Part shown: positions 9,287 to 35,599 of the stretch, in pieces
How positions within the stretch are numbered: position 1 is the first letter of the stretch
Layout of the letters: the number at the start of each line of letters is the position of its first letter
Assembly: GCA_010093995.1 (NCBI GenBank)
Contig: ML992503.1
Span: forward strand, 242,984-280,494
Origin: Elsinoe ampelina
Lineage: Eukaryota
Reading direction: 5' to 3'
Length of the DNA: 37,511 bases
The notes under the pieces: model-generated
Database searches by the model: none
Told to the model about the DNA's origin: nothing
The model's input: the letters and a program-made list of their open reading frames with translations, nothing else
Made by a program: the position numbers and the translations under genes

Positions 9287-9623
9287 AAGTAAGAGGTTAT
9301 TTATATATAGCTAAGAAGTTAAAGTTCGTATATAAAATTTTAATATATATAAAATAGTAAAAAGAAGAGGCTAGAGTAAGAAATATAAAACCTATTATTA
9401 GATATGCTATTTACTATTAATAATAAAGAATAATAGAATAATAGTAAATAACTTATATAATAATAGCTTTCTTATTCCTTACTCTAGCTTCTCTTTTTAT
9501 TATTTTATACATTTATAAATTATAAATTTCTAACTCTAACTTTCTCTTTATACCTTTACCTCTTTTACTTACCTTATATATAATTTATATACTATAAATA
9601 CTCTTTTTATTACCTTTAATTAA

Positions 9624-9802
9624 ATATCTATACCTATAGAAGACATTAAGATAGAGTAGAAAGAGTAGGTAGTAATTAAGTAAGAAGAAGACAATAGAGA
9701 GAATGTTCTAAGAGAATTATTAGGGGTATTAATTATAGTCTCTTATTATATATAGTTACTAACAATACTAGAGATTTAATTCTAAGTAGTAGAAAATTAA
9801 AC
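9624..9802 (+). pseudogene. Truncated 5' fragment of the acidic-tail ORF3 paralogue (exon 1, intron 1, start of exon 2)
   Basis: Colinear with 20389-20567; similarity ends abruptly at the hAT TIR at 9803. Confidence 0.75.
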
Positions 9803-10190
9803 TAGAGTAGTTAGTAGATAGTAGGTATTCTACTACGGGTAGAGTAGAGTATTATTTCTTAGCATAGTAGGTATAGGTTAGGTAGAGTATTCTTAGTAGT
9901 AGGTATAGTAGGGGTTAGGTAGTAGATATTTTATATACCTAAATACTCTACCTACTATAACTTACACCTATATATAGGTAGGTATTACGTAAGTAATAGA
10001 AGCTTCTCTTAATTCTCTAATATAAGACATTATATAGAATTTAAAATTAGAAAGGACAGTAATAATTATAGTCTCTAATTATAGCATCTTATATGCTTAG
10101 TTATTATAATTATAAATAGTTCTATTCTATACCCTTATAGATAATCTTATATGCTTTACTAGAGGCTTGTTATTATTAATATTATTATTC

Positions 10191-10394
10191 TAATTACGAC
10201 TAGCAAGATAAGGGAGTTAATTATATCTATTTATTAAGATATCGAGACTTAGAAGAAGAAGAAGAAAAGCTAGTATACAAAGCACGCGTAATATCGAGGG
10301 CGGAGCAGCTAGAAGCCTAGGCCGCGATACTAAAATTACATAACTAATCTAAACTATATCCTAACTAAATCTAGTTCGTATCTATCTCGTATTA
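10191..10394 (-). repeat. 3' LTR of Gypsy B copy 1
   Basis: Direct repeat of 16376-16579; the PPT complement CTATCTTCTCTCTT is adjacent at 10395. Confidence 0.95.
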
Positions 10395-10717
10395 CTATCT
10401 TCTCTCTTAAGTGTATTTACTCTTAAATACTATTATATATTATTTATTAATCTATTTCGGCCTTAGCTTATCTATGTAAGAGTCTAGATAGTTATATAGC
10501 ACGTTAGCTACTCCTTTAAGATTGTTAATTAGCCACTAGGTAAGATTCTCTAGATAGCTCTTCTAGCTTATATAAGTAACTAGTTTACTACGTAGTATAT
10601 GTATATTAACTACGTCGTCTACCTCGTATTTCTCTTTACTATTAACTTCTATCGGAGGTAGTTCCTTAAAGACTTAGCCTAGTAGAGAGTTATTTAGATG
10701 CTTAGTAAGTAGATTAG

Positions 10718-10921
10718 TAATACGAGATAGATACGAACTAGATTTAGTTAGGATGTAGTTTAGATTAGTTACATAATCTTAGCATCGCGGCCCGGGCTTC
10801 TAGCCGCTCTGCCCTTAATATTACATGTGCTTTATATACTAGCTTTTCTTCTTCTTCTTCTAAGTCTTAATATCTTAACGAATAGACGTAATTAACCCCC
10901 TTATCTTACTAGTCGTAATTA
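10718..10921 (+). mobile_element. Solo LTR of Gypsy family B, in opposite orientation inside Gypsy B copy 1
   Basis: Complete 204-bp LTR with flanks ATTAG (10713-10717) and ATCGG (10922-10926), which differ only by transitions. The uninterrupted site is present in copy 2 near 32861-32865. Confidence 0.93.
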
Positions 10922-13900
10922 ATCGGCGTAGAATATAGAGTAGATTTATTATAGCGTAGCTAGTAGATCTAGCTTATATACTAATAGTAACTACTTCTCG
11001 AGGATCTTATATAGACTAACGTGTTTTAGTAGTAGCTTTAGATTGCTATATAGCTAGAGGTTCTTTATCGATAACTATACTAAATCGCCTACCTTAAACT
11101 CTATCGGCTAGTAGTGCTTATTAGCTTATTCTACTATACGCGATTAGGCAATAGCAAGGTTAGCTTTAGTAATAACTAGCGCTTCTTTTAGTTGTTTAGT
11201 AAGTGTATAGATGTCGACCTTATTTAGCTTAGCTCTTGTTAATAGTGCGTTAAAAGGGAGTTAGAAGCTTAGCCTTAGCTTATATCCTCTAGTAACCTTA
11301 AATAGTAATAGCTTAGTACTCTCTAATAGGTTAACGTTAGTAGAGAACTCTATAACTAGTAGAATAAGAGTCTAATTACTAAAGCGTATAGCGTATAAAT
11401 AAATAACTTACTCGAACTTACAATTTATAACTTCTAATTAGCTGTCTATCTATAGATGCCCTATAGTAGATAGTTTAGTAGTAATCTTTAGGATTTAGTA
11501 GAGCCTCTTCTATACGTCGCTAACGAACTAAGAGCTATAATCTAAGGTAATACTATCTAGTAGGCTATATAGTTTCTACACATAGAAGAATAATAGCTTA
11601 GCTATCTTAAATATAGAGGTTCCTTCTTCTCCCTAGAAGTAAGGGATTAAGTGTTGTTCCTTAGACAAGTAATTGACAATATATAGTACTACGTTATAGC
11701 TATCTACTAGAGGTAGGCTAGTAACGAAGTCTATAGTAATGTATTACTAGGGCCTAACCGGAATAGGTAATAGTAATAGAGGGCTAGCTAGTAAGCTATA
11801 GCGAGCCTTTAAGCGCTTATAGTTATAATAGTTAGCGATAAACCTCTTAACATTAGAATTACACCCGGGGATATAGAAAGTAGACTTAATTATAGTAGCC
11901 GTCTTAGTAGCTCCTCCGTGTATGTAATTCTTTAATATATAAACTTCTTAGATAACTTTTGTAGCTATAGAGAAAGGCATAATTAATCGGCTAGTAGCGT
12001 ATAGTATTCCCTTCTTAATTATAACATTAGTCGATAGTAACTATTTTCTCTTTAGGAAGGCTTCTATTATATAGTAGACACTATAAACTGTCTCGAAGTT
12101 AGAGTCTTATAAGTTAGCTTTAGCTACTTCGTCGAAAAGGAGTAAAGGCTCTTCTATAGCGGAGATAGGTACTATATAGATACCTAGCTCGCGAGCCGAA
12201 ATAGGCAGCGAAATAGGTGCTAAACTAGATCTTAGTTTAGCCTAGATTAGTAATTTAGCTCGGATACGACCTAGATTTAGTTCGTTAATAATATGCTAAT
12301 CTAGCACTTTATATAGTAATAGCGTCTAGCGTAGATTAGAGTCTTCTTTCGAACGTAGTACGTCTCTATTTCTTCTTATAAGTGTGTTAGTCTTACTATT
12401 AGCGGCGCTAGACCTATATATAATCTTAAAGTTAAACTACGTAAGGTAGAGGGCCTAGCGCACTTAGTAGCGTAATAGCTTCTAAGTCTTTATAAAATGC
12501 ATTAAGGATTAGTAGTTAGTAAGGACGTAAATAGCCTTATCGGATTAAGTACTTATAAGCTTAGAGGCCTATTCCTTAAAGGCTTAAACGATTACTAATA
12601 GCTCCTTATTATAGATTACGTAGTTATGTTCGGCTTTGCTTATAGATTTACTAAAGAAGGTAACAGGCTAGAGAACGTCGGAATTGTTATATTACAATAG
12701 AATTCTAGTAGTAGTAGTATCGGAGGCGTCGGTCTTAATAACTACTTACTTCGAGTAATTAAAGTACGCTAAGATAGAGGCACTTATAATAGTATACTTT
12801 ATGTAGTTAAACGTAGTAGTATACTTATTATTTTATAGCGTAGCGTCCTTCTTAAGTAGGTCGTTTAATAGCTTAGCGATAGTACTAAATCCCTTAATAA
12901 AGTAGTAATAGTAGCTATAGAAACTAATAAAGCTTCTTATCTAAGTAGTATTACTAGGGGCTAGTTGTTTCTAGGCTTATATAGCTTTAACCTTCTTTAG
13001 ATCTATCTTAACTCTATCTCGACTAATAATAATACTAAGATACTTTACTTCTGTTAGGTAGAACTTGCTCTTCTTAATATTAGTATTTAGGTCTAAATTG
13101 TAGAGACGTTAGAGTACTAGCTTAATATACTTAGCGTACTCTTAGCAAGTGCCGTCGGTATAGATAAGAATATTATTAAGATAGATTAACACGAAGCGCT
13201 TAAGCATGTTAACAAAGTTATAATTTATAAACCTCTACTATACTATAGAAGCGTTAGTAAGGCCGAATAGCATTACTAACTACTTAAAGTTACCTATACG
13301 TATAGAGAACATAGTAAGGTCTTTACTATCGATAGAGTTATAGAGGTAGTAGAAGGCTTAATAGATATTAATCTTACTAAACTATTTAGCTTTACTTACG
13401 CGCGTAAGTGTTTCTTTAATAAGAAGTAAAGGATAGATATCTCGCTTAGTTACCTCGTTAAGGCTATAGTAATCGATGTAAAGGCGAAGTTCGCCGCTAG
13501 ACTTATAAACAAAGAGAATAAGCAAGGAATAGCTAGCTAAGCTTAGCGTAATAAAGCCTTTATTAAGGTGCTTATAGATAAATAGCTCTACTATATTAAG
13601 CTCCTCTAGTAATAGGCAGCGAAGAGGTTTAGTACGTAGTAGTTTAGCTCTATTCTTAAGTGTAATTTAATTGTTAAAATCTAGCCGATATAGAGGAAGC
13701 ATATTAGATTACTCTTTAGAGAAGACGTTAGTAAACTTCTATAGCTCTTCTAGGAGAACTACTATAGGGTCTAGTTCTAGCTCGGAAGCTATCTAGTAGT
13801 AGTTCTCGATATTCTTTACTAAGATTATAAACACCTTATTCTTTTAGTATTTAGCTACTAATACAAAGGTAGCGGCGCTAATAAAAGCAATAGTTAGCTC

Positions 13901-16375
13901 TTCTTACTTAGTGTTACTTACGTAGGTAGGTACGTAGGAGAACTTATATATTAGCTAAGTACTATAAGAGATTAGGTTAAACTCTCTCTAATTTAGCTTA
14001 AAGTTCGACCTAAGAGCTAGTAGTCGATATAGTCTAGTTTATCCTATCTTAGCGGCTAAGCTAGAACCTAGTTCGTAAGTTAAATTAGAACTAAACTAGT
14101 TCCGAACTAGAGTAGTAGCTTTACCGAGCTAGATTTCTAGATCTAAGCTAGGCTTAGATCTAGATTCTAGTCTTTTAATTAGCTACGGTAGCTCCTACTT
14201 AATAACTGTCGGTAAAAACTCTTCTTTGTATATAACTTAGCTATGCTTATAGTCGATAGTAGCCCTATTAGCCTTAAGCTATCTAAGGCTAAGGATAATA
14301 TTAAATCGGCTAATATCTATAATACGGAAGGTAGTAAAGTTGTTTAGCTTACTAGAAATAGTAGTAGTAAGAGAGACGCTATAAGTAACTTATTCTATCG
14401 GAACACTATTATAAGTCTAAAGCTAAATAGAGCTAGCTAGTGCCACCGGACAGCTAAAACTCTTTAGCTTATTAAGAATATTATAGTTAACTATAGCGCC
14501 GATAAGCGCGCTAGTATCGATAAAGACTTAAAGTGCAATAGTACAAGAGTAGTTATAGAGGTTATAAATAGTAATAAGAGTTATAATAGCGAGGATATAG
14601 TAGCTAACGACGCTATTTAATAACTATATACCTCCGGATCTATCTCGAATTACTCTTATTCTACTAGAGAATAGAACTTGTTCTCTAGCTACTTATTTCT
14701 CTAGCTAGATAGGCTAGTAGACTTATAATCTATTTCGAGGTTAAACTAAGACTAAACTAGATCTAGTTCGTAAGCCGAACTAGTATTAACTTAGTTACTT
14801 AATTCGGCTAAGCGATCCTAGAGCTATTATATCTCTTCTACGGCACTAATACGTATAGGACGTAAAGCGGCGTAAGTAGCCTTCTCTAAGGCGCTAGCTA
14901 TATACTTAGTAGAGATATAGCTAGGCTTACTACATATATAATAGGTAAGTATTAGAGCTAGACGAAAGAGCTATAGGGCTCCTCTAGTAATAGAGCAAAA
15001 GGTAGCTAGAGTAGTAAGCGCGGAAGTAGAATAAGACACACAGATTAGTACTATAGTAACGTAGCTTATAGCTAGGCTAGAGTATAAGGCCTAAGTACGC
15101 TTAGTAATAAGGTTGCTCTATTAAATATTATAGTTAGTAGCGTAGGCCTTTATAATAAAGGTAGAGAGGTTATTAGTATTAAAGTTAATAAGAGTAACGC
15201 GTAGTTTATTAGATATCTTCTAACATAACTAGTAGAGCTATTTATCCTTAGCAATCTTAGCGCGAAGAGCGTACTTATTAAATTCGCTAATAAAGGAGTT
15301 AAAAGAGGTATTACGCTAGAAGAGGCTAGTAAACTAGGCGCGCGTAGTAGCCTTATAGTTAGGGTCTTCGAAGCGCTAAGCTAAGATACTAAGGGTAGCT
15401 TTAACGTTAAGGGTGTTATTACCGGCAAAGTCTATAATAAGAGTATATACTTCGCTAGAAAGGTGCGAGTAGAGATAGGTAAACTAGGTTACCTCGGTAG
15501 AGAAATAGTTAGTATTAGTACGTATCTTGTTCTTTATTTAGTGCTTAAAAACCTTAAACTGTTCTAGAGTGCCACTAGAGAAGATAGCGAGGTCTAGTAT
15601 CTTTTTAGACAATATAGTACCGTATATAGAGGGAGCTAGTATAGTACGTTCTATCTTAGCTCTTAGCTAGGCTAGTTTAGCCTTAAGTTTGCTAATGTCT
15701 ATAAGGTAGCGCGTAGTTTAGATAGTAAGATTATTAGTAGTACTATTAGTAGTATCTAGTTCTATTAGAGCGTTATCTAACTAGTTACGTAGGTTAAGAG
15801 TGTTAGCATATACTAAGTTATATACGGTAACCTATCCATCGTAGGTAGACTTAATAAAGGTAAAGGCCTTATATAGAGTAGTTATCCTATCTATCTCTTA
15901 TAGCCTCTTCTTAAGGTTAGTGTTACTAAGGCAGATAAGGTCGTAATAGGCTAACTAGACTAGTTCGTTATTGTTGTTAGCGGGGGGTAAAGAGATCTTA
16001 CTTACGTAGCAATTATCTTCGCTATAGTTAGAGTAAGCTATGCTCGGCGTAGTTAGTTATAAATAAAATAGTGTAAAAAGTCAACGCGTAACAAAGGAGA
16101 TATTAAAAATTTTTAGCCGGCGGCCTACTTTCTTTAAGAGTTGTCTATAACTCGACTTATTACCTTCTTCTTATATCTTCGAAGTTTGTAGTATTAACCT
16201 ATATAGTAGTAGTAAGGATCTATTATAGTGTACGTAGGAACTATAGTTATAATAGCTTCTTCTTTAATTCTTTAATTCTTCGTAAGTAATAGTTAGTAGT
16301 TATATAAGTAGTAGAATAACTAGATAATTTAATAGCTCCGTTGCTTAGTTATAGTTGTTCGAAGTCTCGATATAG

Positions 16376-16579
16376 TAATTACAACTAGCAAGACAAGGGA
16401 GTTAATTACGTCTATTCGTTAAAATATCGAGACTTAGAAGAAGAAGAAGAAAAGCTAGTATATAAAGCATATATAATATCGAGAGCGAAGTAGCTAAAAG
16501 CTTAGGCTATAATACTAAGATTACATAACTAATCTAAACTATATCCTAACTAAATCTAGTTCGTATCTATCTCGCATTA
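16376..16579 (-). repeat. 5' LTR of Gypsy B copy 1
   Basis: Matches the other four family-B LTRs. Confidence 0.95.
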
Positions 16580-19496
16580 TATTCTCCTTGTAATTGCTTA
16601 GAATAAAGTTACTCTCTTAAGAAGGTAGCTTAAGTAGGTTATCTACCTTGTCTATAGTAGTATCTTTATAACTACTATTAATAGTATCTTAATAACTACT
16701 AGTAATAATATTACTACTTAACAAAGAGAGACTTATTATAAGCTTTATAATAATAAGCTACTAGATAGTTTATATAGTAAGCTAGTGTCTTCTATTACTA
16801 ATAATATTCTTTACTATATTAAAGACATATTCGACACCTACGCTAGCTATTAGTATAGCAAGGATATTATAAGTAACTTTAGTAAGCTATAGAAACTTCT
16901 TCTTATTAGTCTTCTACTAATTAAGCAACTTAAATTTAGTCCCTAGTTAAATTCGAATAGGAGAGATACTAAGGTAATTCTTACTCTCTTAATATATAGT
17001 TTATTTCTCCTTCTCTTATTTTAGAGATATAGACTCTATACTAGATTAGAAGCTAAAGCTAGTCTACGGGGAGGTAATCTATATAGGTACTCGAGGTCGA
17101 CGGAACTAATCCTCTTTATTATTAGACAAGATTATAGCGTTAAGAGTTTTAGGTTAACTTAATAGTAATTTACTATTATAATAACTAAGGTAGTTAAGGA
17201 ACTACTCGCGATACTTCCCCTTATTAGTTTTAGCCTAGGTCTCGTCCTATATTACTATTAGCTTTACTATAATAATATATCTATAAGCTATAAACCTCGT
17301 AGGGAGTTAGCTTTTATAAAGGGTCAAGAATAGTGCTATAATTAAAGAGGTAACTTCTCTTATTATTAGTGTAAGAATAGTACTTTAATAGTTTATCTTA
17401 ACTATATTATACTACCCTTTTAACTACTATAGGCTAACGCTCCTTATTATTCTTCTTCTCGCCTATAATACTATTCTTAATTATATTAAGAAAGTCGAAT
17501 AGTTAATTATATATTATCTAGATATATAAGATCTATAGGCGGCTAATAGTACTTAGAGAGGTAGTTACTTCCTTAAAGTTCTTAAGTATTTTTATAACTA
17601 GCTTAAGGTAATTCTATTCTATACTATTAAGATAAAGATACTTAAGATTCTTATAGTCTAGATTACTAGTGTTATTACTAACTAAGTTAGATCTAGCACT
17701 AGTAGAGCCTTTTAGTATAATTTCCTACTTAAGCTATTTATTAATAAATAGCCTAAGCTCGAGACTATACTTATATATATTAAAGGTTAAGTTCTACTAC
17801 GTCTTAATATCTTAAATAATAACCTTACGCTCTCGAGGCGTTATAGTTTATTAGAGGTTAATAAACCTCTTAAACCGTTAAGGTAATTAGTTAATAGTAA
17901 TATAAGTTACACGAAGCTAGTAATTTATTAGACTATAATTAGAAATTGTAATTAGAAAGCTAATCTTCCGAAGCGAGTTTAGTACTAAGAGTTTAGTAGA
18001 GATATCTTTTAAGTGCTATCTTTTAAGCCTAGTAGCCTACTCTTCTTCCTTAGTAGTCTAAAGGTTAAGGTGCTTAATAATGTCTTATATAACTAGGTTA
18101 ATAATATATATAAGGCATAGAATAGTATTCTCTTATAAGTTCTATATAATACCTATCTATCTTAGAAGCTTATATATAGTCTTATATAACATATAATTGT
18201 TACTTACATTATCTATAGTAATTGCTAGAAGCTAGTTCTAGAGATTATACTACCGGAGTACCTATATAAGCTTAGTAGCTATATTCTGCCCTATATATTA
18301 ACTACGAAGTAGTACTATATCTAATAGTTGTTCCCGGAGATACTATTAGTTATTAATATAATAAGCTTTAATTGTAATAAAGCCTAAGTAGTTGTTAGTA
18401 GACTAGCTATTAAGTGTAATTAAAATCTTTATAGTCTTATTAAGATTCTATAATAAGCTTTTATAGAGAGTCTTAAATTTGTTAATAAAGAGTATAGCGA
18501 AATAACTACGGCTTAGTATAAGTACTCTCGGGTATAAGAACTATATAAACTATTAAAATAATAGTCGCTTAATAGTGTAGAAGGACTAATTATAGTTAAT
18601 AACTGTTTAAATAAGCTCTAATTAGAAGTAAGTAACTAAATATAATAGAACGTTTTTCTAATCGATTACTAGATAAGCTCGAAGTTATATAAGTACTCGG
18701 ACTACTAGTACTTTCTTATAGACTAGTCTTGTTACTTTCCTACAAAAATTTAACTCTCTGTATTTACTTATTACATTAGTACTATTCTTTCCTAGCGTAG
18801 AGTAGGTAAGAGCATTACTATACTATAGGTAGTAAATATATAGACGACTATCTAATACCTATATAGCTTCTCTAAAATATCTCTATACTTGTCTAGTTCT
18901 TAGTTTTAAGTTCTAGTATAGTATATAGAACTCCTTAGAGTAACTATAGCAAGATACCTAAAGTATTAAGTTCTACTATATTAAGAAGCTTTAGAGGTCT
19001 ATTTGTTCGTTAGGATATACTAAGGGATTAAGCGTTAGACACTTTAGAAGATACTATTATATAGGCTAACTACCCTTATTGCATTATTATATAGTAAAAC
19101 AATAATTAAGCAAATCTTAAGAGATAGAGATTACTATAACTAATAGAGTTAATAGAAGATATAGTTATAGATCGATTAGATCGTTAAAGTCTACTATAGT
19201 AGAGTAGAGGTTATATAGTATTATAGATAGTATAGGTGTTTATAATGTTATACTTATTTAGCTATATAATTTTAAATAATAGATTTGTTTTTAGACTATT
19301 AGAAAGTCTTCTCTACTATTACTTTACATAAGGCATTTTAAAACGCGCTAGTAGCCCCTATATAATTACAAATATTAATTATAACTAATATTTTTAATTC
19401 TAACCTTTAAAGTATATAATAAATAGAAAGGATTAAAGTATTATTATATTATATTATTATAGTAAAGAAATTTATTACTCTCTCTATACTATTTCC

Positions 19497-21657: not shown

Positions 21658-22393
21658 ATATAATAGAGATTAAAAGTATAATTCTATAAGTAGTAGTATT
21701 AGAGAATATAGTTTATAATTAGAATCTATTATTAGTAATTATACTTTGTTATTTTGTATATTACTAATAACCTATAGAGTGTAAAATTTATAACTCTACT
21801 CTAACCTACCCCTTAGCTTAGCTAACTCTAACTCTACCTACTCTCGCGAGAGTTAGCTAAGCCTAGAGGTAGGTTAGAGTAGAGGTAAGTTACCTAGAGA
21901 AAATTCTAACTCTACTCTACTCTATAACTACTCTAATTATAGATATAATTAGTTACTCTAGAATCTAGTATCTATAAGCTTAAGATGTTAGTAGTAGCTA
22001 AGATAAATACTAAGTGTAATCTAATAGTAATAGCTATATTAATTAACACTAGTAGAGTTAATTCCTTTTAATATTATACTTCTTTAGTAATAAAAGCCTT
22101 AATTCTCTCTTTAAGAGTCTTATTATTTAGCCTTTATTTAACCTCCTTTATAGTCTACTAGTTTAGTGTCTATCCTTCTAGCCTTAGATACTTATTTAAG
22201 TAATAGTACTTAATCTACTTATACCAGCCTTAGTATATATATTTAAGCTCCCTAGAGAAACTAGGTTTCTTATAAAGAATATTCTTAGTAGCTATAGAGA
22301 AGGCTATAGCTCCCTTACTAGCCTTTATAGTACTATATAGCTTATAGAGTTTATAAAACTGTCTAAACTTAGTAATTAGTTTAAGTATAGTTA

Positions 22394-22857
22394 TGTTATA
22401 AACTAGTAGGATAAGCTAGAGCGTAGAGACGTTAGAACTAATTAAACTACTAAGGTTATTACGCGACCTAGCCCGACGTTTACCCGGTTCTCTATCTTCT
22501 CTAGTAGCTCTACCCCGGAGACTATAGAGCGCATAGGTTACTAGTAGACGTATACTCTATCTTCTCTAGCGGCTCTACTATAGAGCACGTAGAGTATATA
22601 AGGTACGTAGTAAAGAACACATGTATATAGGAATAGTCCTTACCTTATATAAGTACTATAGTTAACCTTATCTAGATAGCGAACACTAGTATTACTAAGG
22701 CTAGCCTTTATAATACTATCTAATTGTACTTTATTATCTATAAGACATATCTTCTCTAACTCTTACTTTAGTACTATACTACTATAGAAGTAGAACTACC
22801 TCGTTCTTAGCTTAGCTTAGACTACTAATATAGGCTATGTTTAAACAGTTCGTGACA
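22394..22857 (+). repeat. 5' LTR of Gypsy D
   Basis: Direct repeat of 35136-35599; contains an internal 24-bp duplication and TATATAAG near 22647. Confidence 0.96.
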
Positions 22858-22973
22858 TTTTAACTACCCTTACTATAGCATAGCACGCTACAAGGTTAAT
22901 AAGTAACTCTTACTCTAAGTTACTATTAGTATCTTCGATTGCTAGTAAGCTAGGAAAGCTTACTATTAACGAC

Positions 22974-24962
22974 ATATCTACTACTAGTTTAACCTTAGGC
23001 AAACATAGAAGGTCTCTTAGTATAGGGGAAGGACGGAGTAAGCCTAAGTTAGAAGTAGAACTCTTCTATAGGGACTACGCCTACTTAAGGCACTTTCTTG
23101 TTTAACTTAAAGCCTTCTTCGCTCTAGAGAGAGACAAGTACGCTAACGATGTAGTAAAGGTCCTCTATGCCGAGATACACCTTAAAGGCGCTACCTTTAG
23201 GTAATTTAAGCCTTATATAAGTAGCTACCTAGATAGATAACTAGGCCTAGATATAAAGGCTATCTTTAAGAGCTTTAGTATCTTCTAGGCAAAGATTAAG
23301 TAAGTCTTTAACGTATCTAATAAGGAATATATTACTATAACGAAGATTTAACAACTATAACAACGTAGGTCTATAGCCTAGTACTACTCCTAGTTCTAAC
23401 AACTTATAATACACCTAGACTAGAATAATAGTGCTAAACATTTAGTATTCTACTAAGGACTAAGCGACTTAGTTAAGGACTAAATAATACCTAAGCTGCC
23501 TAATAGCCTCTAAGAACTAGTAGATACTACAATTGCTATTAATAACTAACTTTACAAACGACGTATAGAACGTCGTAGAGGATATAAGGTAAATACTAGA
23601 TATACGCGTTTCTCTCGAAACTATAGAGACTCTATAGAACTTAACGCTATATACGAAGGTTACCTCTTATAGGTATAAGGCCGAAGTTGTAGAGGAAAGT
23701 TCCTTAGTAGAAAAGAGAGAGAGAAGTATAGACGAGACAATCTATATTTTAAGTGTAAAAGACCTAGGTATTAGGCTAGGGACTACTAACAAGGGGCGCT
23801 AGCTAATAAATTACATATAATAGTTACCGGGCTAGTAGAGAAAAAGGCTAATACTACTATAGAAGACCTAACGATCTTTAGCGTAGGTAAGGAAATATAG
23901 AAGAAGTCTACGATAACTCGAGAGGTAATAGAATTCTCTCTAGATATTATACTTAATATCTCTATAACTAATAGCGAATAACAAAGCTAACACGTAACGC
24001 TATTATAGATAGTATATTATAATAACTCTTGTTATATTTACTTATTAGACAAGTAAGGATCTAGTTAGTTTCTATATAAGCTATTTAAGCGTAGGTAACT
24101 AACGAAATAGCTAGACTAGGAACCTAACCTAGAAGAGCTCTCTATAATTAGTAGTAACATTAACTAACCTTAGAAGGTAGTTAGCGACAATTACTAATAT
24201 ACAATTATTAAGACGAAGTATTAGGACGTAAGTGCTATATAACAATATAGTAGCCTTACCTTTAGCTCTTATAGTAAACTATAAGGAAAGGTATATTATA
24301 TATCGCTCTAGAAATATATAAATCTAGATTGTAAATAGTACTATACTATTTACTTATATAATATACTTAGAGAAGAGGCTATTAGTCTTAAATACACTAT
24401 AGACTTCACGGTAATTGAAATAGGTAGTACTATTTCCTATAGCTAAGTACGGGAATGTACTTAGTATAGCCTTACTAACTATAACTATACTAGGGGTAGC
24501 AGCGATAAAGAGAAATATAACGAAGAATACACTAAACGACTATAATATAACAACATAGATAAAGACTTATCTAACGACAAAGACGATAATATACTACTAC
24601 CGGGCGGACAACTTAAGGCATACCTTATAGGGATATAGAGAAACTATATAATAATATACACCTACTACTAGAATAGAATACAACAAGATAAATCTACTTA
24701 ACCTACGTTTGTCTTTAACGCTAATACCTAGCTATACCCGGAGGGGATAGTTATACTAGTATAGGTATATAATACTACTTAGTATAACTAGTAGAGAATT
24801 ATTAAACTTTATAGTTATTAAGGAACGTAAGTATTAGAAGTTTACCTTGCTATATTAAACAACGATAAAACATAACTTGCCTAATAGATATAGTACTAAT
24901 AGTAGATACGCGTAGGAAGGGATTAGCTACTTATCTAAGAAGCTATAATAATAAAAAACTAG
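22974..24962 (+). pseudogene. Gypsy D gag (ORF1, ~660 codons) with CCHC knuckle and long Cys/His-rich C-terminal extension
   Basis: De-RIP motifs: FYQGL, YGDPMELDA ~23622-23648, CFKCKRPGHQARDC ~23745-23786, H.TLSWTACYDDSC.IH.SDK.GSGWFP ~23991-24074. Ends at AAAAAAC-TAG. Confidence 0.85.
24953..24959 (+). promoter_or_regulatory. Putative -1 ribosomal frameshift heptamer A AAA AAC
   Basis: X XXY YYZ slippery site immediately before the gag stop and ~130 nt upstream of the protease DSG. Confidence 0.7.
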
Positions 24963-27745
24963 CTAGTTGTTACCTAATAAGGTAAGACAATAACGCTAGC
25001 TAAAGCCTTAATATAATAAAGATCTATATATTAAATTACTTTATACTAGAAGCCTAGATATAAGAAAATAAGGTAAGAGTAATAATAGATTCGGGAGCTA
25101 ACTATAGCTACGTCTCTATAATAGTTACTAAATAGCTTAAACCTTATTAACATTAGAAGGAGTTACCTTACCTACTTACTATAGCTAATAGAACCTCTAT
25201 AGAGAAGGATAGGAAAGTTACTTAGGAACTATAAAACGTTATAATTAAAATCGGGACATATATAGAAAAACAATTAATCGATATAGTTAACATATAGTAT
25301 AATATAGTACTTAGCATAGACTAGCTTTAATAACACAATCTAGACATAGACTAGATTAAAGAAACACTTAAATTCCCTAAGTGTAATTATAGGACGTAGA
25401 GAGTATAATTAGCTCTATAGATACTAACTATAAGGATAGTATAGGTACGACTAATAGTTAGAGCTATTACTAGCGTAAGTAATTAAGTACTTCCGCCGGA
25501 ATATAAAGACTTTAAGGACTTATTTATAGAAAGGAAAGACATTGTAGCCTTGCTCTAATATAAACTATAGAATTACAAAATACCTTTTAAAGAAGGTAAA
25601 TCCCTAACACACTATTAAGGTCTAATACCACTATCGAAATAAGAGAAGAACGTTCTTAAGAACTACATCGACAAGTACTTACTTAAAGAATTTATACAAC
25701 TATTAAAATTACCTATTGTGCACGGAGTGCTTTTTACACCTAAGAAGGATAAGACATTATAAATATATATTAATTACTAGAAACTTAATACACTTACCCG
25801 AAAGAATTACTATTCTCTACCTAGGATTAACAAACTCTAAGACTAACTACTTAGAGCTAAATAGTTTACTATAATTAATATTAGGAATGCCTATTATTAA
25901 GTATAAATAAAGGAGAGCAAGGAGTAGAAAACAGCTTTTAGGATATAATAGAGTCTATATAAATACCTTGTTATACTCTTTAGGTTAACTAACGCTCCTA
26001 TAACCTTCTAAGAGTTAATTAATAACACTCTATAAGAATACCTTAATAACTTTGTCTTAGCATATCTAGATAATATTATTATCTTCTTAAAGACGTACGA
26101 TAAATATATAGGACATATTTATAAAGTGCTACGAAAACTAAAAGAGAAAGACCTACTAGTAAAACTCTCTAAGTGTAAGTTCTATAAGCATAAGATACAA
26201 TTTCTAGGCTATGTTATATCTACTAATAGTATTAGACCTAATCTAAAGAAGATTAAGTTAGTAAATAACTAGCTAGAACCTACAATAGTTAAGGAGGTTT
26301 AAGCGCTACTAGAGTTCTTTAACTACTACTATAAGTTTATTAAGGGATTCTCCGAAGTAGCTACGCTAATATCTAACCTTATAAAAAAGAAAACTAGCTT
26401 TGTCTTTAACGAAATATATAGGTAGGCCTTTAAGGAGCTAAAGCTTAGACTTATAATAGTACCTATCCTAGCACTCTTTAACCTAGACTAATAAGCACTA
26501 CTAGAAATAGATGCCTTAAACTTTATAATAGAAGTGTGTCTAGTATAGAAAGATATATAAGAATAACGCTACCTAATTATATACTACTTACGAAAAATAA
26601 CTAGGCCTAAACTTAACTACGACATATACGATAAAGAATTACTTATAATTATAGAAGTATTCCGTAAATAGTATATATACCTAGAAGAAACAACCTTACC
26701 TATATAAGTCTATACCGACTATAAGAACCTATTATATTAGACAATAACTAAGGTTCTTAATAGACAATAGGTTCGATAGTTAGAAACACTTACGAGCTAT
26801 AACTTTTAGATCTACTATGTTAAGGGATTAGAGAATAGCAGAGTAGACGCTCTTAGCTAATAACTAGACTACTTAAAGAATATAATAATAATAGAGGCCT
26901 CTATACTAAAGTAGTAAGATAGCGCTTTAGTCTATAAGCACCTAAAGGTAAAGCAATTATATAGCCTTACCTAGGAGCTTACGTAAGAATAGAAAAAAGA
27001 AGTTATTTAAATATACTATAATAACCTAACTACAGGACATAGCAGGATTAATAAGACTATTAAACTTATTATATAAAACTACCTATAGAAAGAACTCCGA
27101 AATAATATTAAGATATATATTACTATATACAATATATACTATAAGTCTAAGCACTTACAATATAAGCTGTATAGCCTACTATAACCCTTACTACTACTAG
27201 ATAAGCTATAATACGAGATAGATACGAACTAGATTTAGTTAGGATGTAGTTTAGATTAGTTACGTAATCTCGGCATTATAGCCTAGACTTCCGGCTACTC
27301 CGCTCTTAATATTATATGTGCTTTATATACTAGCTTTTCTTCTTCTTCTTCTAAGTCTTAATATCTTAACGAATAGACGTAATTAACCTCTTATCTTGCT
27401 AGTTGTAATTACTATATCGAGACTTTAAATAACCGCGACTAAGTAATAGAGCTATTAAATTATCTAGTTATTCTACTACTTATATAACTACTAACTATTA
27501 CTTACGAAGAATTAAAGAATTAAAGAAGAAGCTATTATAACTATAGTTCCTACGTACACTGTAATAGATCCTCGCTACTACTATATAGGTTAATACTATA
27601 AACCCTAAAGATACAAGAAGAAAGTAATAAGTTAAGTTATAGATAACTCTTAAAGGAAGTAAGCTACTAGCTAAAAATTTTTAATATTCCCTTTGTTACG
27701 CGTTGACTTTTTACACTGTTTTATTTACAACTAACTACGCTAAGC

Positions 27746-29098
27746 ATAGCTCGCTCTAACTATAGCAAAGATAATTGCTACGTAAGTAAAATCTCTCTAT
27801 CCCCTACTAATAACAATAATAAACTAGTCTAGTCGGCCTATTACAACCTTATTCGCCTTAGCGATACTAACCTTAAGAAGAGGCTATAAGAGATAGACGA
27901 GATAACTACTCTATATAAGGCCTTCGCCTTTGTTAAGTTTACCTACGACGAATAGGTTACTATACGTAACTTAGTATATACTAACGCTCTTAACCTACGT
28001 AACTAATTAGATAACGCTCTAATAGAACTAGATACTACTAATAGTACTACTAACAATCTTACTGTCTAAATAGCGCGCTACCTCGTAGACATTAGTAAAC
28101 TTAAGGCTAAACTAGCCTAGCTAAGAGCTAAGATAGAACGCGCTATACTAGCTCTCTCTATATGTAGTACTACGTTATTCGAAAAGATACTAGACCCCGC
28201 TATCTTCTCTAGTAGCACTCTAGAATAGTTCGAGGTTTTTAAGCACTAGATAAAGAATAAGATACGCGCTAATACTAACTATTTCTCTACCGAGGCAACT
28301 TAGTTTACCTATCTCTACTTATGCCTTTCTAGCGAAGCGTATACTCTTATTATAGACTCCGCTAGCGATAATACCCTCGACGTCGAAGCTGCCTTTAGTA
28401 TCTTAGCTTAGCGCTTTAAAGACCCTAACTATAAGGCTACTACGCGCGCCTAGTTCGCTAGCCTCTTCTAGCGTAACGCCTCTTTCGACTCCTTTATTAG
28501 CAAATTTAATAAGTATGCTCTTTGCGCTAAGATCGCTAAGGATAAATAGCTCTACTAGTTACATTAGAAGATATCTAATAAACTACATATCGCCCTTGTT
28601 AACTTCGATACTAATAACCTCTCTACCTTTATTATAAAGGCCTACGCTACTAACTATAATATCTAATAGAGCAACCTTATCACTAAGCGCACTTAGGCCT
28701 TACGCTCTAGCCTAGCTATAAGCCGCGCCGCTATAGTACTAATCTGTGTGTCTTATTCTACTTCCGCGCCTACCGCTCTAGCTACCTTCTACCCTATTAC
28801 TAGAGGAGCCCTATAGCTCTTTCGTCTAGCTCTAATACTTACCTATTACGCATGCGGCAAGCCTAGCTATATCTCTACTAAGTGTATAGCTAGCGCCTTA
28901 GAGAAGGCTACTTACGCTACTATATATCCTATACGTATTAGCGCTATAGAAGAGATATAATAGCTCTAGGATCGCTTAGCCAAATTAAGTAACTAAGTCG
29001 ATACTAGTTCGGCTTATAAACTGGATCTAGTTTAGCCTTAGTTCAACCCCGAAATAGATTATAAGTCCACCGACCTATCTAGCTAGAGAAACGAGTAG
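27746..29098 (+). pseudogene. Gypsy B gag (451 codons)
   Basis: CYACGKPGHIS.KC knuckle at ~28844-28885. Ends GAGAAAC-GAG-TAG (possible eroded slippery site). Same length as in copy 1 (14689-16041). Confidence 0.85.
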
Positions 29099-32000
29099 CT
29101 AAAGAACAAGTTCTATTCTCTAGTAGAACAAGGGTAATTCGAGATAGATCCGGAGGTATATAGTTATTAAATAGCGTCGTTAGCCACTACATCCCCGCTA
29201 TTATAACTTCTATTACTATTTACGACCTCTATAACTGCTCTTACACTATTACACTTTAAGCCTTTATCGACACTAGCGCGCTTATTGGCGCTATAGTTAA
29301 CTATAACGTTCTTAACAAGCTAAAGAGTTTTAGCTATCCGGTGGCACTAGCTAGCCCTATTTAGCTTTAGGCTTATAATAGTGTTCCGACAGAACAAGTT
29401 ACTTATAGCGTCCCTCTTACTACTACTGTTTCTAGTAAGCTAAATAACCTTACTACCTTCCGTATTATAGATATTAGCCGATTCGACATTATTCTTGGCC
29501 TTAGATAGCTTAAGGCTAATAGGGCTACTATCGACTACAAGTATAGCCGAGTTATATACAAAGAAGAGTTTTTACCGACAGTTATTAAGTAGGAGCTACT
29601 ATAGCTAATTAAAAGACTAGAATCTAGATCTAAGCCCGGCTTAGATCTAGGAATCTAGCTCGGCAAAGCTACTACTCTAGTTCGGAACTAGTTTAGTTCT
29701 AATCTAACTCGCGAACTAGGTTCTAGCTCGGCCGCTAAGATAGGACAAACTAGACTATATCGACTACTAGCTCTTAGGTTAAACTTTAAGCTAAATTAGG
29801 GAGAGTTTAAGCTAATCTCTTATAGCACTTAGCTAATATATAAGTTCTCCTACGTACTTGCCTATATAAGTAACACTAAGTAAGAAGAGCTAACTATTAC
29901 TTTTATTAGCGCTACTGCCTTCGTATTAGCGGCTAAATACTAAGAGAACGAGGTGTTTATAATCTCGGTAAAGGATATTAAGGACTACTACTAGATAGCT
30001 TCCGAGCTAGAACTAGACTCTATAGTAGTTCTCCTAGAAGAGCTACGGGAGTTTACTAACGTCTTCTCTAAAGAGTAATCTAATATACTTCCTCTATATC
30101 GGCTAGATTTTAACAATTAGATCATACTTAAGGATAGAGCTAAACTGCCACGTACTAAACCCCTTTGCCGCCTATTACTAGAGGAGCTTAATATAGTAGA
30201 GCTTTTTATCTATAAGCACCTTAATAAAGGCTTTATTACGCTAAGCTCGGCTAGCTATTCCTTGCCTATTCTCTTTGTTTATAAGCCTAGTAGCGGACTT
30301 CGCCTTTGCGTTAATTACTATAGCCTTAACGAGGTAACTAAGCGAGACGTCTATCCCCTGCCTCTTATTAAAGAAACACTTACGCGCGTAAGTAAAGCTA
30401 AATAGTTTAGCAAGATTAACATTTATTAAGTCTTCTACTACCTCTATAACTCTGTCGATAGTAAAGACCTTACTATATTCTCTATACACATAGGTAACTT
30501 TAAGTAGTTAGTAATGCTATTCGGCCTTACTAATACCTCTATAGTATAGTAGAGGTTTATAAATTACAACTTCGTCGACATACTCGAGTACTTCGTGTTA
30601 ATCTATCTTAATAACATTCTTATCTACACTAATAGCACTCGCCGAGAGTACGCTAAGTACATTAAGCTAGTGCTCTAACATCTCTACGATTTAGGCCTAA
30701 ATACTAACATTAAGAAGAGTAAGTTCTACCTAATAGAAGTAAAGTATCTTAGTATTATTATTAGTCGAGATAGAGTTAAGATAGATCTAAAGAAGGTCGA
30801 AGCTATATAAGCCTAGAAACAACTAGCCCCTAGTAACACTACTTAGGTAAGAAGCTTTATTAGTTTCTATAGCTACTATCGCTACTTTATTAAGGGATTT
30901 AGTACTATTGCTAAGCTATTAAACGACCTACTTAAGAAGGACGCTACGCTATAGAACGACAAGTGTACTACCGCGTTTAACTATATAAAGTATACTATTA
31001 TAAGTGCCTCTATCTTAGTATACTTCGATTGCTTAAAGTAAGTAGTTGTTAAGACCGACGCCTCCGACACTACTACCGCTAGGATTCTATTATAATATAA
31101 CAATTCTAACATTCTCCGGCCCGTTACCTTCTTTAGTAAATCTATAAGCGAAGCCGAACGTAACTACGTAATCTATAATAAGGAGCTATTAGTAATTGTC
31201 TAAGCCTTTAAGGAATAGGCCCCTAAGCTTATAAGCACTTAATTTAATAAAGCTATTTACGTCCTTACTAACTACTAATCCTTAATACATTTTATAAAGA
31301 CTTAAAAGCTGTTACGCCGCTAAGTGCGCTAGGCTCTCTACCTTACATAGTTTAACTTTAAGATTATATATAGGCCTAGCGCCGCTAACGGTAAGGCCGA
31401 CGCACTTATAAGGAGGAATAGAGATATACTACGTTCGAAGGAAGACTCTAATTTACGCTAGACGCTATTGCTACATAAAGTGCTAGATTAGCGCATTATT
31501 AACAAACTAAATCTAGGTCGTATTCGAGCTAGATTGCTAATCTAGGCTAAACTAAGATCTAGTTTAGCACCTATTTCGCTACCTATTTCGGCTTACGAGC
31601 TAGGCACCTATATAGCACTTATCTCCGCTATAGAAGAGCCTTTACTCCTTTTCGACGAAGTAGCTAAAGCTAACTTGCGAGACTCTAACTTCGAAACAGT
31701 TTACGGCGTTTACTATATAATAGGAGCCTTCCTAAAGAGGAAATAGTTACTATCGACTAATGTCACAATCGAGAAGAGGATACTATACGCCGCTAGCCGA
31801 TTAATCGTGCCTTTCTCTATAGCTATAAAAGTTATCTAAGGAGTCTATATATCGAAGAATTATACACACGAAGGGGCTACTAAGACGGCCGCTATAATTA
31901 AGTCTACTTTCTATATCCCTAGGTGCAATCCTAACGTTAAGAGGTTCGTCGCTAACTGTTACAACTATAAGCGCTTAAAGGCTTACTATAGCTTACTAGC

Positions 32001-33130
32001 TAGCCCCCTATTGCTATTGCCTATTCCGGTTAGGCCCTAGTAATACATTACTATAGACTTCGTTACTAGCCTACCCCTAGTAGATAGCTATAACGTAGTG
32101 CTATGTATTGTTAATTGCTTATCTAAGGAACGACACTTAATCTCTTACTTCTAGGGAGAAGGAGAAACCTCTATATTCGAGACAGCTAAGCTATTATTCT
32201 TCTATATATAGAAACTATATAGCCTACTAGATAGTATCACCTCGAATTGCGGCCCTTAGTTCGTTAGTAACGTATAGAAGAGGCTCTACTAAATCCTAAA
32301 GATTACTGCTAAACTATCTACTATAGGGCATCTATAGATAGACAGCTAATTAGAGGTTATAAATCGCAAGTTCGAGCGAGTTATCCGTTTATACGCTATA
32401 CGCTTTAGTAATTAGACTCTTATTCTACTAGTTATAGAGTTCTCCGCTAACGTTAACCTATTAGAGAGTACTAAGCTATTACTGTTCGAGGTTACTAGAG
32501 GATATAAGCTAAGGCTAAGCTTCTAACTCTCTTTCGACGTACTATTAATAAGAGCTAAGCTAAATAAGGTCGACATCCGCGCACTTGCTAAATAACTAAA
32601 AGAAGCGCTAGTTATTACTAAAGCTAACCTCGCTATTACCTAATTACGTATAGTAGAACAAGCTAATAAGCACCGCTAGCCGATAGAGTTCGAGGTAGGC
32701 GATTTAGTGTAGTTATCGACAAAGAACCTCTAGCTATATAGCAATCTAAAGCTACTATTAAAACACGTTAGTCCGTATAAGATCCTTAAGAAGTAGTTAC
32801 TATTAGTATATAAGCTAGATCTACTAGCTACGCTATAACGAATCTACCTCGTGTTCTACGCTAATCTACTTACTAAGTATCTAAATAACTCTCTACTAGG
32901 CTAAGCCTTTAAGGAACTACCTCCGATAGAAGTCGATAGTAAAGAGAAATACGAGGTAGACAACGTAGTTAACGTATATATACTACGCAGTAAACTAGTT
33001 ACTTATGTAAGCTAGAAGAGCTATCTAGAGAATCTTATCTAGTGGCTAATTAACAATCTTAAAGGAGTAGCTAACGTGCTATATAACTATCTAGACTCTT
33101 ACACGGATAAGCTAAGGCCGAAATAGATTA
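29090..33130 (+). pseudogene. Gypsy B pol (PR-RT-RH-IN-chromodomain)
   Basis: FIDT(G)A ~29263; LRLC.DY..LN ~30298; YL(DD)ILIY ~30604; TDASD ~31054; integrase HHCC ~31850-31968; W..I.IDFV..LP ~32038; chromodomain EKYEVD ~32944. Confidence 0.92.
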
Positions 33131-34512
33131 ATAAATAATATATAATAGTATTTAAGGGTAAACGCGCTTAAGAGAGAGAGTAGTAATACAAGATAGATAC
33201 GAACTAGATTCAGTTAGGATGTAGTTTAGATTAGTTACGTGATCTTAGTATTACGGCCCGGGCTTCTAGCCGCTCTACCCTTAATATTACGCGTACTTTA
33301 TATACTAGCTTTTCTTCTTCTTCTTCTAAGTCTCGATATCTTAACGAATAGACGTAATTAACCTCTTATCTTACTAGTCGTAATTAAGCTATAGTAATTA
33401 GTTATAATAGACTTTATAGGACCTCTACTACTATTAGAAGAACCTCTTATAGGTATAAAGTATAATAGTATTTTAGTTCTAGTAGATAGGTTTACGAAGT
33501 ATTACTACTTTGTACTATATAAGACAATAGTAACTACCGAGGATATAGCCTTTACCTTCCTCCGAATAATTGTTTTATAATATAGAGTACTACGAGACCT
33601 AATAACTAATAGGGATAAGCTATTTATATTACAATTCTAGTAATTATTTATAGACCTACTAGGAGTTAAATATAAGCTATTAACCTCCTTTTATCTATAA
33701 ACGGATAGACAAACTAAATAGGTAAATTAAGTACTAGAGTAGTACCTACGATGCTACCTAAACTATAAGCAAGACTTATAAGTAACACTATTACTACTTA
33801 CGGAGCTCGCTATTAATAATAGAAAGTCTGCGAATAGAGTTTTACTATTCTATATAAACTATAGAATATGCCTAGATCTATACTACGATATACTTAGAAT
33901 TAAGCTAGTATCTAAAGACACTAATATACTAGTTACTAACATTAAGAAACTATATAACTAGCTATACTATAATATAGCATTTATATTACAAAGAATAGTA
34001 GAATTTACTAACTAGAAGAGAATTACAGGACTAATTCTAAAGGAGAGAGAGAAAGTTTACCTCCTTAGTAAAAACATTAAAACGAAACAACTAAGTAAGA
34101 AACTTAACTATACTAAACTAGAACTCTTTAGAATCCTAGAAAAGAAAAATAAGAACGTATATAAACTAGAACTACTAAGACATATAAGGATCTATTTAGT
34201 CTTTTATATATTACTACTAGAGAAAGCACTATAAAACGCTATACCTAGACCTATTAAACTAGACGAAGAAATATAGGAGCTATAGTATAAGATTAAAAGG
34301 ATTTTACGTTATAAACTTATAAAAGGAAAACGCTACTATCTTATTTACTAGAAGGAACATTAGTATAGCGAAGTAACATAGGAACTAGAGAAATACCTTA
34401 CCTTATAAGTAATTCTAGATTACTAAATCGAAAACCTATCCTAAGTAAACTAACTAGGTAGGCCCGACGCTACTACTACTAAACAAAAACGAGAACGCTC
34501 TAGAAAGACTAC

Positions 34513-35061
34513 TTAGCCGATAGAAGTACTCTAATCGTTACTAAATAGAGAACCCTAGTTAGAGTTAGGCATAAATAATTACTAGTCCTATAGTAGGATA
34601 GGATCTACTAATAATAGTATTTTCTCCTACTCTAAGACTTAAATACGAGTCTCCTCTAGAGAGATTACTTTCTCTACCTTATCCTCTAACTTTTATATCT
34701 CTTCGCGTAGGCGAAGCTTATTACCTATAGCTCTTTAATAAGCCTCTTTTGCCTTTTTATAAGCTTCTTTAGCTTTCTTTCTAGTAGCCTTAGCTATAAC
34801 TAATTCCTTTCGTAAACGAATATACTTAGACTAGAGACGCTACTATTTCGATTTTGTTACTTAAATATTATAACTAGAGTAGTTACTTATAACATACTAG
34901 CTATAGATACCCGACCGAATATAGACCTTATAGTCTAGCCCCTTCGATTTACAACGAGAATAAGCCTATAGCATATTAGTTCTAAATAGTTTAATAAACT
35001 TCGAGAGATTCTTTTATATAGATATACTAGATTTACTATGCCTTCGACAACTAGGAGGTAT
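34513..35061 (-). pseudogene. Antisense accessory ORF of Gypsy D (~180 codons): Zn2Cys6-like motif plus coiled coil
   Basis: Reads Y-x2-C-x6-Y-x8-Y-x2-Y-x7-Y at 34870-34962, where every Y is TAT (the RIP product of TGT, Cys). Followed by an E/K/A/R-rich helical stretch (RLRKEL..AKEA..KAKEA..LRLREE..KLED). Start and stop are inferred. Confidence 0.62.
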
Positions 35062-35135
35062 ATTTAGTACATAGCGCGTAAAGATAGAAAAGAATACTTA
35101 CTCGTTAGAATAACTTAATTAAAGAAGAAGAGTAA

Positions 35136-35599
35136 TGTTATAAACTAGTAGGACAAGCTAGAGCGTAGGGACGTTAGGACTAATTAAACTACTAAGGTTA
35201 TTACGTAACCTAGCCCGACGTTTACCTAGTTCTCTATCTTCTCTAGTAGCTCTACCCTAGAGACTATAGAGTATATAGGTTACTAGCGGACGTATACTCT
35301 ATCTTCTCTAGTAGCTCTACTATAGAGCACGTAGAGTATATAAAGTACATAGTAAAGAATATATATATATAGAAACAGTCCTTACCTTATATAAGTACTA
35401 TAGTTAACCTCGTCTAGATAGTAAACACTAGTATTGCTAAGGCTAGCCTTTGTAATACTATCTAATTGTACTTTATTATCTATAAGACATACCTTCTCCG
35501 ACTCTTACCTTAGTACTATACTACTATAGAAGTAGAACTACCTCGTTCTTAGCTTAGCTTAGACTACTAACGTAGGCTATGTTTAGACAGTTCGTAACA
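35136..35599 (+). repeat. 3' LTR of Gypsy D
   Basis: Direct repeat of 22394-22857. Confidence 0.96.

Follow-up and report, generated by a model that had tools for sequence, protein, structure and literature searches.

Does the minus-strand reading frame that separates pol from the 3' LTR in a ruined chromovirus of Elsinoe ampelina represent a gene of the element and, if so, what kind of protein would that gene encode? The question is raised by the window analyzed here, the whole stretch of 37,511 nucleotides (nt) from contig ML992503.1 (assembly GCA_010093995.1, positions 242,984 to 280,494 of the forward strand), in which a preliminary description had recognized an antisense frame with the remnants of a GAL4-type zinc cluster. 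The GC content of the window is 25 to 40%, its six-frame translation contains 0% Trp, 0.5% Gln, and 8% Tyr, and its RIP indices are extreme (TA/AT, 1.94; (CA+TG)/(AC+GT), 0.22). Such values mark fungal DNA that repeat-induced point mutation (RIP) has ruined, and the entire window appears to be made of nested, RIP-mutated retroelements.

The outer Ty3/gypsy chromovirus carries the antisense open reading frame (aORF) near its 3' end, and its layout is given in Table 1. The region of gag and the first part of pol has 173 stops in one frame alone, and no second copy of the internal region 33400-35124 was found within the window. The second LTR-like repeat family, which bounds the nested insertion, has at least five occurrences here, in both orientations, including 10186-10922 and 16371-16588. 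Within the 3' LTR there is also a 46-nt direct repeat (35232-35277 and 35297-35342, 87% identical) with a counterpart in the 5' LTR at 22555-22606, which could represent an enhancer-like duplication or else a candidate site for protein binding.

Table 1. Positions in the window of the outer chromovirus, the insertion that interrupts it, and the antisense frame
Feature	Position	Strand	Basis or remark
5' LTR of the outer chromovirus	22383-22857	+	475-nt direct repeat, 91.6% identical to 35125-35599
gag and first part of pol, RIP-degraded	22858-27190	+	Pfam on translations with stops set to X
Retrotrans_gag	~23172-23465	+	Pfam
RVT_1	~25739-26218	+	Pfam
RNase H (two models)	~26420-26800	+	Pfam
Integrase_H2C2	~26987-27124	+	Pfam
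Nested insertion, 6.2 kb, splitting the integrase of the outer chromovirus	27191-33393		Bounded by the second LTR-like repeat family
Repeat family D1	27191-27388, 33166-33363, 10700-10897; inverted at 10577-10191, 16586-16371	both	Repeat comparison
Remaining pol: integrase core, SH3_Tf2-1, chromodomain, basic tail	33395-34516	+	Stop at 34514-34516
SH3_Tf2-1	~34049-34228	+	Pfam, E 1.4e-6
Chromodomain	~34265-34405	+	Read from the translation, as is the basic tail; Chromo strong in intact relatives
aORF, a pseudogene here	34513-35061	-	183 codons, 17 stops; tail-to-tail with the pol stop
Six-Cys Zn2Cys6-like domain, CX2CX6CX8CX2CX7C	34870-34962	-	Now Y,C,Y,Y,Y,Y; alignments, codon table, fold searches
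VTxSEWxRL motif and predicted long helix (coiled coil), up to a RAxEAIAVEE-like motif	34618-34860	-	AF2 of the nearest intact relative, homodimer prediction
Polypurine tract, AAAGAAGAAGAG	35121-35132	+	Sequence reading; same layout in 18/19 related loci
3' LTR	35125-35599	+	Repeat match from 35125; LTR proper probably from TGTTAT, 35136

The antisense frame in the window copy

Read from 35061 on the minus strand, the frame opens with IPPSCRRHSKSS and continues, further on, with FIKLFRTNML, a stop, AYSRCKSKGLDYKVYIRSGIYS, a stop, YVISNYSSYNI, a stop, VTKSK, two stops, RL, and a stop, after which comes a K/E/A-rich helical stretch. A single Cys codon is intact (TGT, 34953-34951) and the five other Cys positions read TAT (34962, 34932, 34905, 34896, and 34872), in agreement with the preliminary description. 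TAT is likewise found at 34923, the place of an invariant His of the family (in KVHVRSG), and TAG corresponds to the Trp of VTxSEWxRL in the relatives. Although the start codon reads ATA (35061-35059), we regard 35061 as the true start because the stretch MP..SSTxRR..FIxxFGxxMP upstream of the Cys domain is common to the homologues. It lies 59 nt from the polypurine tract and 75 nt from the first base of the LTR proper, the latter being the distance of about 75 bp that had been described. Considering the number of stops, this copy of the aORF is dead.

In a Tyr-rich window such as this, the spacing of Cys and Tyr is by itself worthless as evidence and not significant: the pattern [CY]X2[CY]X6[CY]X5-12[CY]X2[CY]X6-8[CY] occurs five times in the six frames, and zero times with true Cys. 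This count speaks for a chance pattern in RIP-mutated DNA that was never a gene, a reading that retains next to no probability and that we rule out on the following grounds. When the translation read with X at the stops was compared with 1.84 billion representative proteins, phmmer retrieved 11 at E ≤ 1e-3 (best 2.2e-15, 39% identity), whereas a word-indexed search with the window translation gave no match; only the exhaustive HMMER search found relatives. A profile built from 41 intact relatives matched the six frames of the window a single time, at 35043-34618 of the minus strand (E 2.1e-28, 87 bits), and revealed no further antisense ORF over the whole window. We also examined the 47 columns conserved in at least 70% of the family, counting a window codon as RIP-reachable when it can be derived from the consensus residue by C>T or G>A changes only. 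Identical codons were found in 24 columns, RIP-reachable ones in 18, and others in 5, so that 42 of the 47 are compatible; in 2000 permutations of the codons the mean was 9.4 and the highest value 19. The observation of the aORF is genuine and lies far outside what chance would produce, the copy in the window being a family member ruined by C>T/G>A mutation, i.e., a pseudogene. The existence of 31 related loci in which the position is conserved (see below) stands equally against a chance pattern. RIP-ruined DNA is thus still readable: despite its 17 stops, the copy yielded a gene once its codons were judged by their reachability through C>T and G>A.

Other copies in the same genome were sampled with Logan contigs of two DNA runs (X1 and X2), aligned to 34400-35124 (725 nt) at an identity of at least 80%. 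The number of matching pieces was 1796 in X1 and 1234 in X2, and the differences among them are nearly all transitions (in X1, 27 A>G, 29 C>T, 23 G>A, 21 T>C, and 1 A>C). Since transitions dominate in so many pieces, the element family is high-copy and RIP-diversified; it is very abundant in this genome, and every copy seems to have been diversified by RIP. Among these copies, the start codon of the aORF is ATG in 82% of the depth, the Cys codon that survives in the window is TAT in 63% of the depth, and the conserved Glu of the family is restored in most copies at 34623 and 34848. The middle bases of the five TAT codons do not figure among the 40 places listed of the 108 that vary, and for this reason it is the relatives, not the copies in the same genome, that show Cys at these five positions.

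Intact relatives and the upstream region

The relatives carry Cys at the positions corresponding to Y5, C8, Y15, Y24, Y27, and Y35 of the window, His at Y18, and Trp at one of the stops. The Cys residues bear out the backward reading of RIP proposed in the preliminary description (TAT derived from a Cys codon). The outcome set out beforehand as adverse, with TAT or CAT rather than TGT in less mutated copies or with a frame that is not conserved, does not describe the relatives, which have Cys at all five places in a frame that is conserved, open, and under selection.

When metagenome contigs were scanned with the alignment of the family, 31 loci were obtained. The ORF is open in 23 of them, with 150 to 208 residues and a start that is nearly always MPK, and the remaining 8 are disrupted, several of them showing RIP-like Tyr where the family has Cys or His. 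Directly downstream, on the opposite strand, there is a long convergent ORF that abuts the aORF or overlaps it by up to ~100 nt. All 15 convergent ORFs scanned were chromovirus pol (protease, RT, RNase H, integrase, SH3_Tf2-1, and chromo) or gag, and with them the claim that the frame is encoded by the element holds beyond the window. In the closest informative pair of loci (L016 and L026) dS is 0.46 and dN is 0.045 (ratio 0.10); pN is lower than pS in 189 of 190 pairs. When all six frames are compared, pN/pS is lowest in that of the aORF in 8/8 pairs, and the aORF frame is the sole stop-free one in the gap-free pairs. These data show that the aORF is a real, conserved gene tied to the element, under purifying selection on its amino acid sequence.

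The protein of intact elements has ~150 to 210 residues, typically ~190. It starts with a short, basic N terminus (MPK..SSTxRR) and a helix (LxxFIxxFG), followed by the six-Cys domain with its invariant KVHVRSG linker, the motif VTxSEW/FxRL, and a helix of 85 residues, and its C-terminal motif, LALSPxTWxAxxGLxDxFW, is acidic and aromatic. Among elements only 30 to 50% identical, all six Cys are invariant. At the N-terminal helix, which precedes the first Cys, 23 of the 41 members gave weak, sub-threshold Pfam matches to DUF5651 (cutoff, 27 bits; best E 6e-4), and 4 of the 41 gave such matches to DUF3716. No paper mentioning DUF5651 was found in a literature search.

Upstream of the gene, a polypyrimidine run (the polypurine tract on the other strand) precedes the ATG by 28 to 97 nt in 18 of 19 loci; it is itself preceded by the LTR end, ..CGTAACA, and a TATA-like motif is found ~40 to 50 nt before the ATG. 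There is also a conserved hairpin of 5 to 9 bp with a (G)TCC(T/C) loop, situated 30 to 100 nt upstream of the ATG in loci L001 to L026 (35062-35120 in the window). It folds in 16 of 17 loci when sequences are folded singly, with modest z-scores (-0.1 to -4.7). The stems vary by element (AGCTTCG, AGCGCTG, AGACTTCG, GCCGCG, and others), a variation that looks like covariation, and the G-T pairs favor the aORF strand. RNAalifold on a MAFFT alignment of this tract-proximal hairpin returned 0 pairs, since the hairpin arms are out of register in the alignment. From the layout between tract and ATG, the TATA-like motif, and the hairpin, we infer, reasonably in our view, a putative antisense promoter at the inner edge of the 3' LTR.

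Predicted fold and dimerization of the product

The spacing CX2CX6CX8CX2CX6-8C is present in all 19 intact proteins from the loci, with X6 as the last interval in 10, X7 in 7, and X8 in 2. The Cys columns are 95 to 100% conserved among the 41 sequences, one Cys surviving in the window copy. Comparison with the Pfam HMM Zn_clus (PF00172), which the preliminary description had proposed, gave weak matches only: 16 of the 41 members match at E ≤ 10, and the gathering cutoff is never reached in the family (best E 0.0053). The scores listed for four hits among the 14 proteins scanned are 10.6 to 12.7 bits against a cutoff of 21, some of them out of register. The family falls outside formal Zn_clus membership because its hits are sub-threshold only, and with stops read as X the copy in the window gave no Zn_clus match at E ≤ 0.1. 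One member of the family, an NCBI protein of Aulographum hederae (P0026), carries the UniRef name Zn(2)-C6 fungal-type.

In the AF2 model of the nearest intact relative (pLDDT 82.9) the Cys domain contains two short helices. All of the Foldseek matches listed for the full model in the PDB (ranks 1 to 27) are Zn2Cys6 proteins, none of them at E ≤ 1e-3, and the neighbors named include GAL4, HAP1, Leu3, PUT3, Pho7, PPR1, LAC9, AlcR, and Cep3. With a model of the domain only (pLDDT 82.7), 24 of the 25 hits listed were Zn2Cys6 DNA-binding domains (best E 0.36). VIA found 7 of 48,161 representative chains at Z ≥ 2, all of them Zn2Cys6 DNA-binding domains (best Z 2.9), among which LAC9 was superposed with an rmsd of 2.0 Å over 33 of 33 residues. 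No fold match of the Cys domain reached E ≤ 1e-3 in Foldseek or Z > 3 in VIA, scores being weak because the domain has only ~40 residues. For these predicted structures, then, the fold-search scores are weak but their specificity for Zn2Cys6 is complete. The AF2 model may do no more than echo the Cys spacing. Searches of PDB sequences gave coiled-coil noise only with the full profile and nothing significant with the domain profile (LAC9, E 4.5).

The GAL4-type reading put forward at the start is therefore supported by the invariant spacing and by fold neighbors that are exclusively Zn2Cys6, and falls short in the Pfam comparison; likewise, the structure prediction that had been suggested yielded Zn2Cys6-like neighbors only, with weak scores. 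According to the models, the Cys domain would fold like a GAL4-type Zn2Cys6 binuclear cluster.

Residues 75 to 159 of the nearest intact relative are predicted as a single helix (pLDDT ~98). Homodimer prediction with residues 33 to 165 gave a score of 0.50, whereas the highest of three controls scored 0.01; at the mark of 0.50, a eukaryotic benchmark includes 17 of 29 proteins solved as one-chain pairs and 0 of 30 single chains. At least 67% of the contacts agree among the three runs, with a pLDDT of at least 72. In the homodimer model of P0001 (residues 72 to 141), residue i pairs with ~218-i around a center at residue 109, and the predicted coiled coil is antiparallel because of this pairing. 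Such an antiparallel rod would put the two Cys domains ~85 helical residues apart, at opposite ends. Of the dimerizing coiled coil claimed in the preliminary description, the pairing of the helix is retained by the models, in an antiparallel arrangement that is not that of GAL4. The helix would thus form a homodimer in these models, predicted to be antiparallel, and the product as a whole is best modelled as a dimeric Zn2Cys6-like protein.

Possible roles and known counterparts

The explanation that we favor, and that we consider somewhat probable as a whole, is that an ascomycete chromovirus lineage carries a conserved antisense gene for a Zn2Cys6-like homodimer, a presumed DNA-binding regulator expressed from an antisense promoter at the LTR edge. 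The aORF of the window is a RIP-killed copy of this gene, which in intact elements of the Ty3/gypsy lineage converges on pol and occupies the space from the chromodomain end of the latter to the polypurine tract. The antisense transcript would start at a promoter on the inner edge of the 3' LTR, and its protein, as a dimer, would bind nucleic acid, with DNA as the most probable ligand, and would regulate the transcription of the element or of host genes. The role as a DNA-binding regulator is the likeliest of the mechanisms considered, with a probability close to even.

GAL4-type factors (PF00172; GAL4, HAP1, Leu3, PUT3, PPR1, LAC9, and Pho7) share with the aORF protein the six Cys in canonical spacing and the order in which the Cys domain is followed by a helix predicted to pair; in the aORF protein, basic residues also separate the second Cys from the third, an arrangement known from zinc clusters that contact DNA. 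Unlike in these factors, its X8 linker KVHVRSG is invariant and lacks the usual Pro before the fourth Cys, and its helix is very long and predicted to be antiparallel, in contrast to GAL4-type dimers on CGG half-sites. It further differs from most Zn2Cys6 factors in its size (~190 amino acids [aa]), in the lack of a middle-homology region (no Pfam match to fungal_trans was found in the family), and in being encoded by a retrotransposon.

These differences leave room for other roles. The protein might be a zinc-binding coiled-coil accessory factor of retrotransposition, active in RNA handling, export, or particle assembly, instead of a sequence-specific transcription factor. A predicted antiparallel rod of 85 residues misfits the spacing of GAL4-type half-sites, Zn_clus is sub-threshold, the N-terminal helix and the C-terminal motif belong to no known family beyond the weak DUF5651 (23/41), and there is a precedent in LTR-element accessory ORFs with nontranscriptional roles, such as CERV of Cer1 (PMC10309623). 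However, all the structural neighbors found are DNA-binding Zn2Cys6 domains, the basic residues between the second and third Cys are those of DNA-contacting clusters, and the layout, which runs from a predicted DNA-binding domain through a helix to an acidic-aromatic tail, is that of an activator, so that we judge an accessory factor rather unlikely. It is more doubtful still that the element captured a host zinc-cluster module for DNA binding and dimerization without a regulatory domain, as a decoy that competes with or poisons a host Zn2Cys6 factor and activates nothing itself. The short length of the protein and its lack of a fungal_trans region would suit a decoy, but the homologue searches found no host paralogue closer than the element-borne copies, and the conserved acidic-aromatic motif at the C terminus suggests an effector function of its own.

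The antisense transcript itself could be what matters, by way of double-stranded RNA, small RNAs, or interference with the sense RNA, with the ORF being incidental. In many loci there is an overlap of up to ~100 nt between the ORF and the 3' end of pol, so sense and antisense RNAs would pair, and gypsy elements of Botrytis are described as strong sources of small RNAs in PMC8365987. Nevertheless, purifying selection acts on amino acids in the aORF frame and in no other, and the six Cys stay invariant between elements that are otherwise only 30 to 50% identical, which makes a role of the transcript by itself very improbable next to the protein regulator that we favor.

Antisense genes in this position have precedents. 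Zhao et al. (2011, Virology 417:248), as cited in passages of PMC8365987, PMC7264820, PMC4227169, and PMC5987419, reported an additional antisense gene, brtn, located between pol and the 3' LTR of the Boty-like retrotransposons of Botrytis cinerea and present also in Sclerotinia. The passages in question state that BcGypsy1 carries brtn, which is absent from the current genome annotation (PMC8365987), and give its position and call its function unknown (PMC7264820). Since brtn was published in 2011, this kind of gene is already known. Both brtn and the aORF are extra genes of fungal gypsy elements with a chromodomain, placed in antisense after pol and before the 3' LTR; unlike for the aORF family, neither a zinc cluster nor a coiled coil is mentioned in these passages on brtn. 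The likeness is one of position and orientation, as described in the citing papers, and no BRTN-named protein appeared among the matches of the homologue searches with the aORF family. A literature search found no zinc-cluster reading of any retrotransposon antisense ORF.

In plants, antisense ORFs between pol and the 3' LTR are described for Grande, RIRE2, Retand, and PvRetro13 in passages of PMC7264820. They have the same position and orientation in Ty3/gypsy elements as the aORF and are conserved within families, and their function is called unknown (PMC7264820). They differ in that the elements are mostly not chromoviruses, their proteins are not known to be related to the aORF product, and no zinc-cluster reading is given in that account of them. 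Catalogues of extra antisense genes in LTR retrotransposons go back decades for plants and to 2011 for Botrytis, with no function assigned. The present analysis provides one of them with an identity in biochemical terms that is concrete and testable: according to the models, it looks like a dimeric, Zn2Cys6-like protein with an activator layout.

HBZ of HTLV-1 is a bZIP factor made from an antisense transcript that originates in the 3' LTR. It resembles the aORF, by analogy only, as a minus-strand gene beside the 3' LTR of a retroelement with a dimerizing product that resembles a transcription factor; it differs in having a basic-leucine zipper instead of a zinc cluster, in belonging to a human retrovirus, and in showing no sequence relation to the aORF. 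We put forward tentatively, at somewhat less than even probability, that a widespread ascomycete chromovirus lineage encodes, in antisense at the inner LTR edge, a GAL4-like zinc-cluster transcription factor of its own, a counterpart of HBZ that would bind LTR or host promoters as a dimer. If the aORF protein does bind DNA, fungal chromoviruses carry a transcription factor of their own, a portable regulator from the largest class of fungal transcription factors. This would bear on the timing of element expression, on the escape from or triggering of silencing, and on the rewiring of neighboring genes, and would turn an exchange between mobile elements and the host Zn2Cys6 repertoire into a testable idea.

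Two observations on element structure concern the metagenome loci. Locus L005 contains, at 9551-11964, a nonautonomous element of 2.4 kb (with the same sequence in L004) whose 330-nt LTRs are 95% identical; it keeps an intact antisense ORF of 175 aa and a gag remnant, the antisense gene being retained in a derivative that has no pol. In L003, L011, L016, L023, and L026, the contig ends are exact copies of each other over 123 to 174 nt, which gives units of 6.2 to 6.8 kb with one LTR; these could be products of assembly collapse of two LTRs or one-LTR circles.
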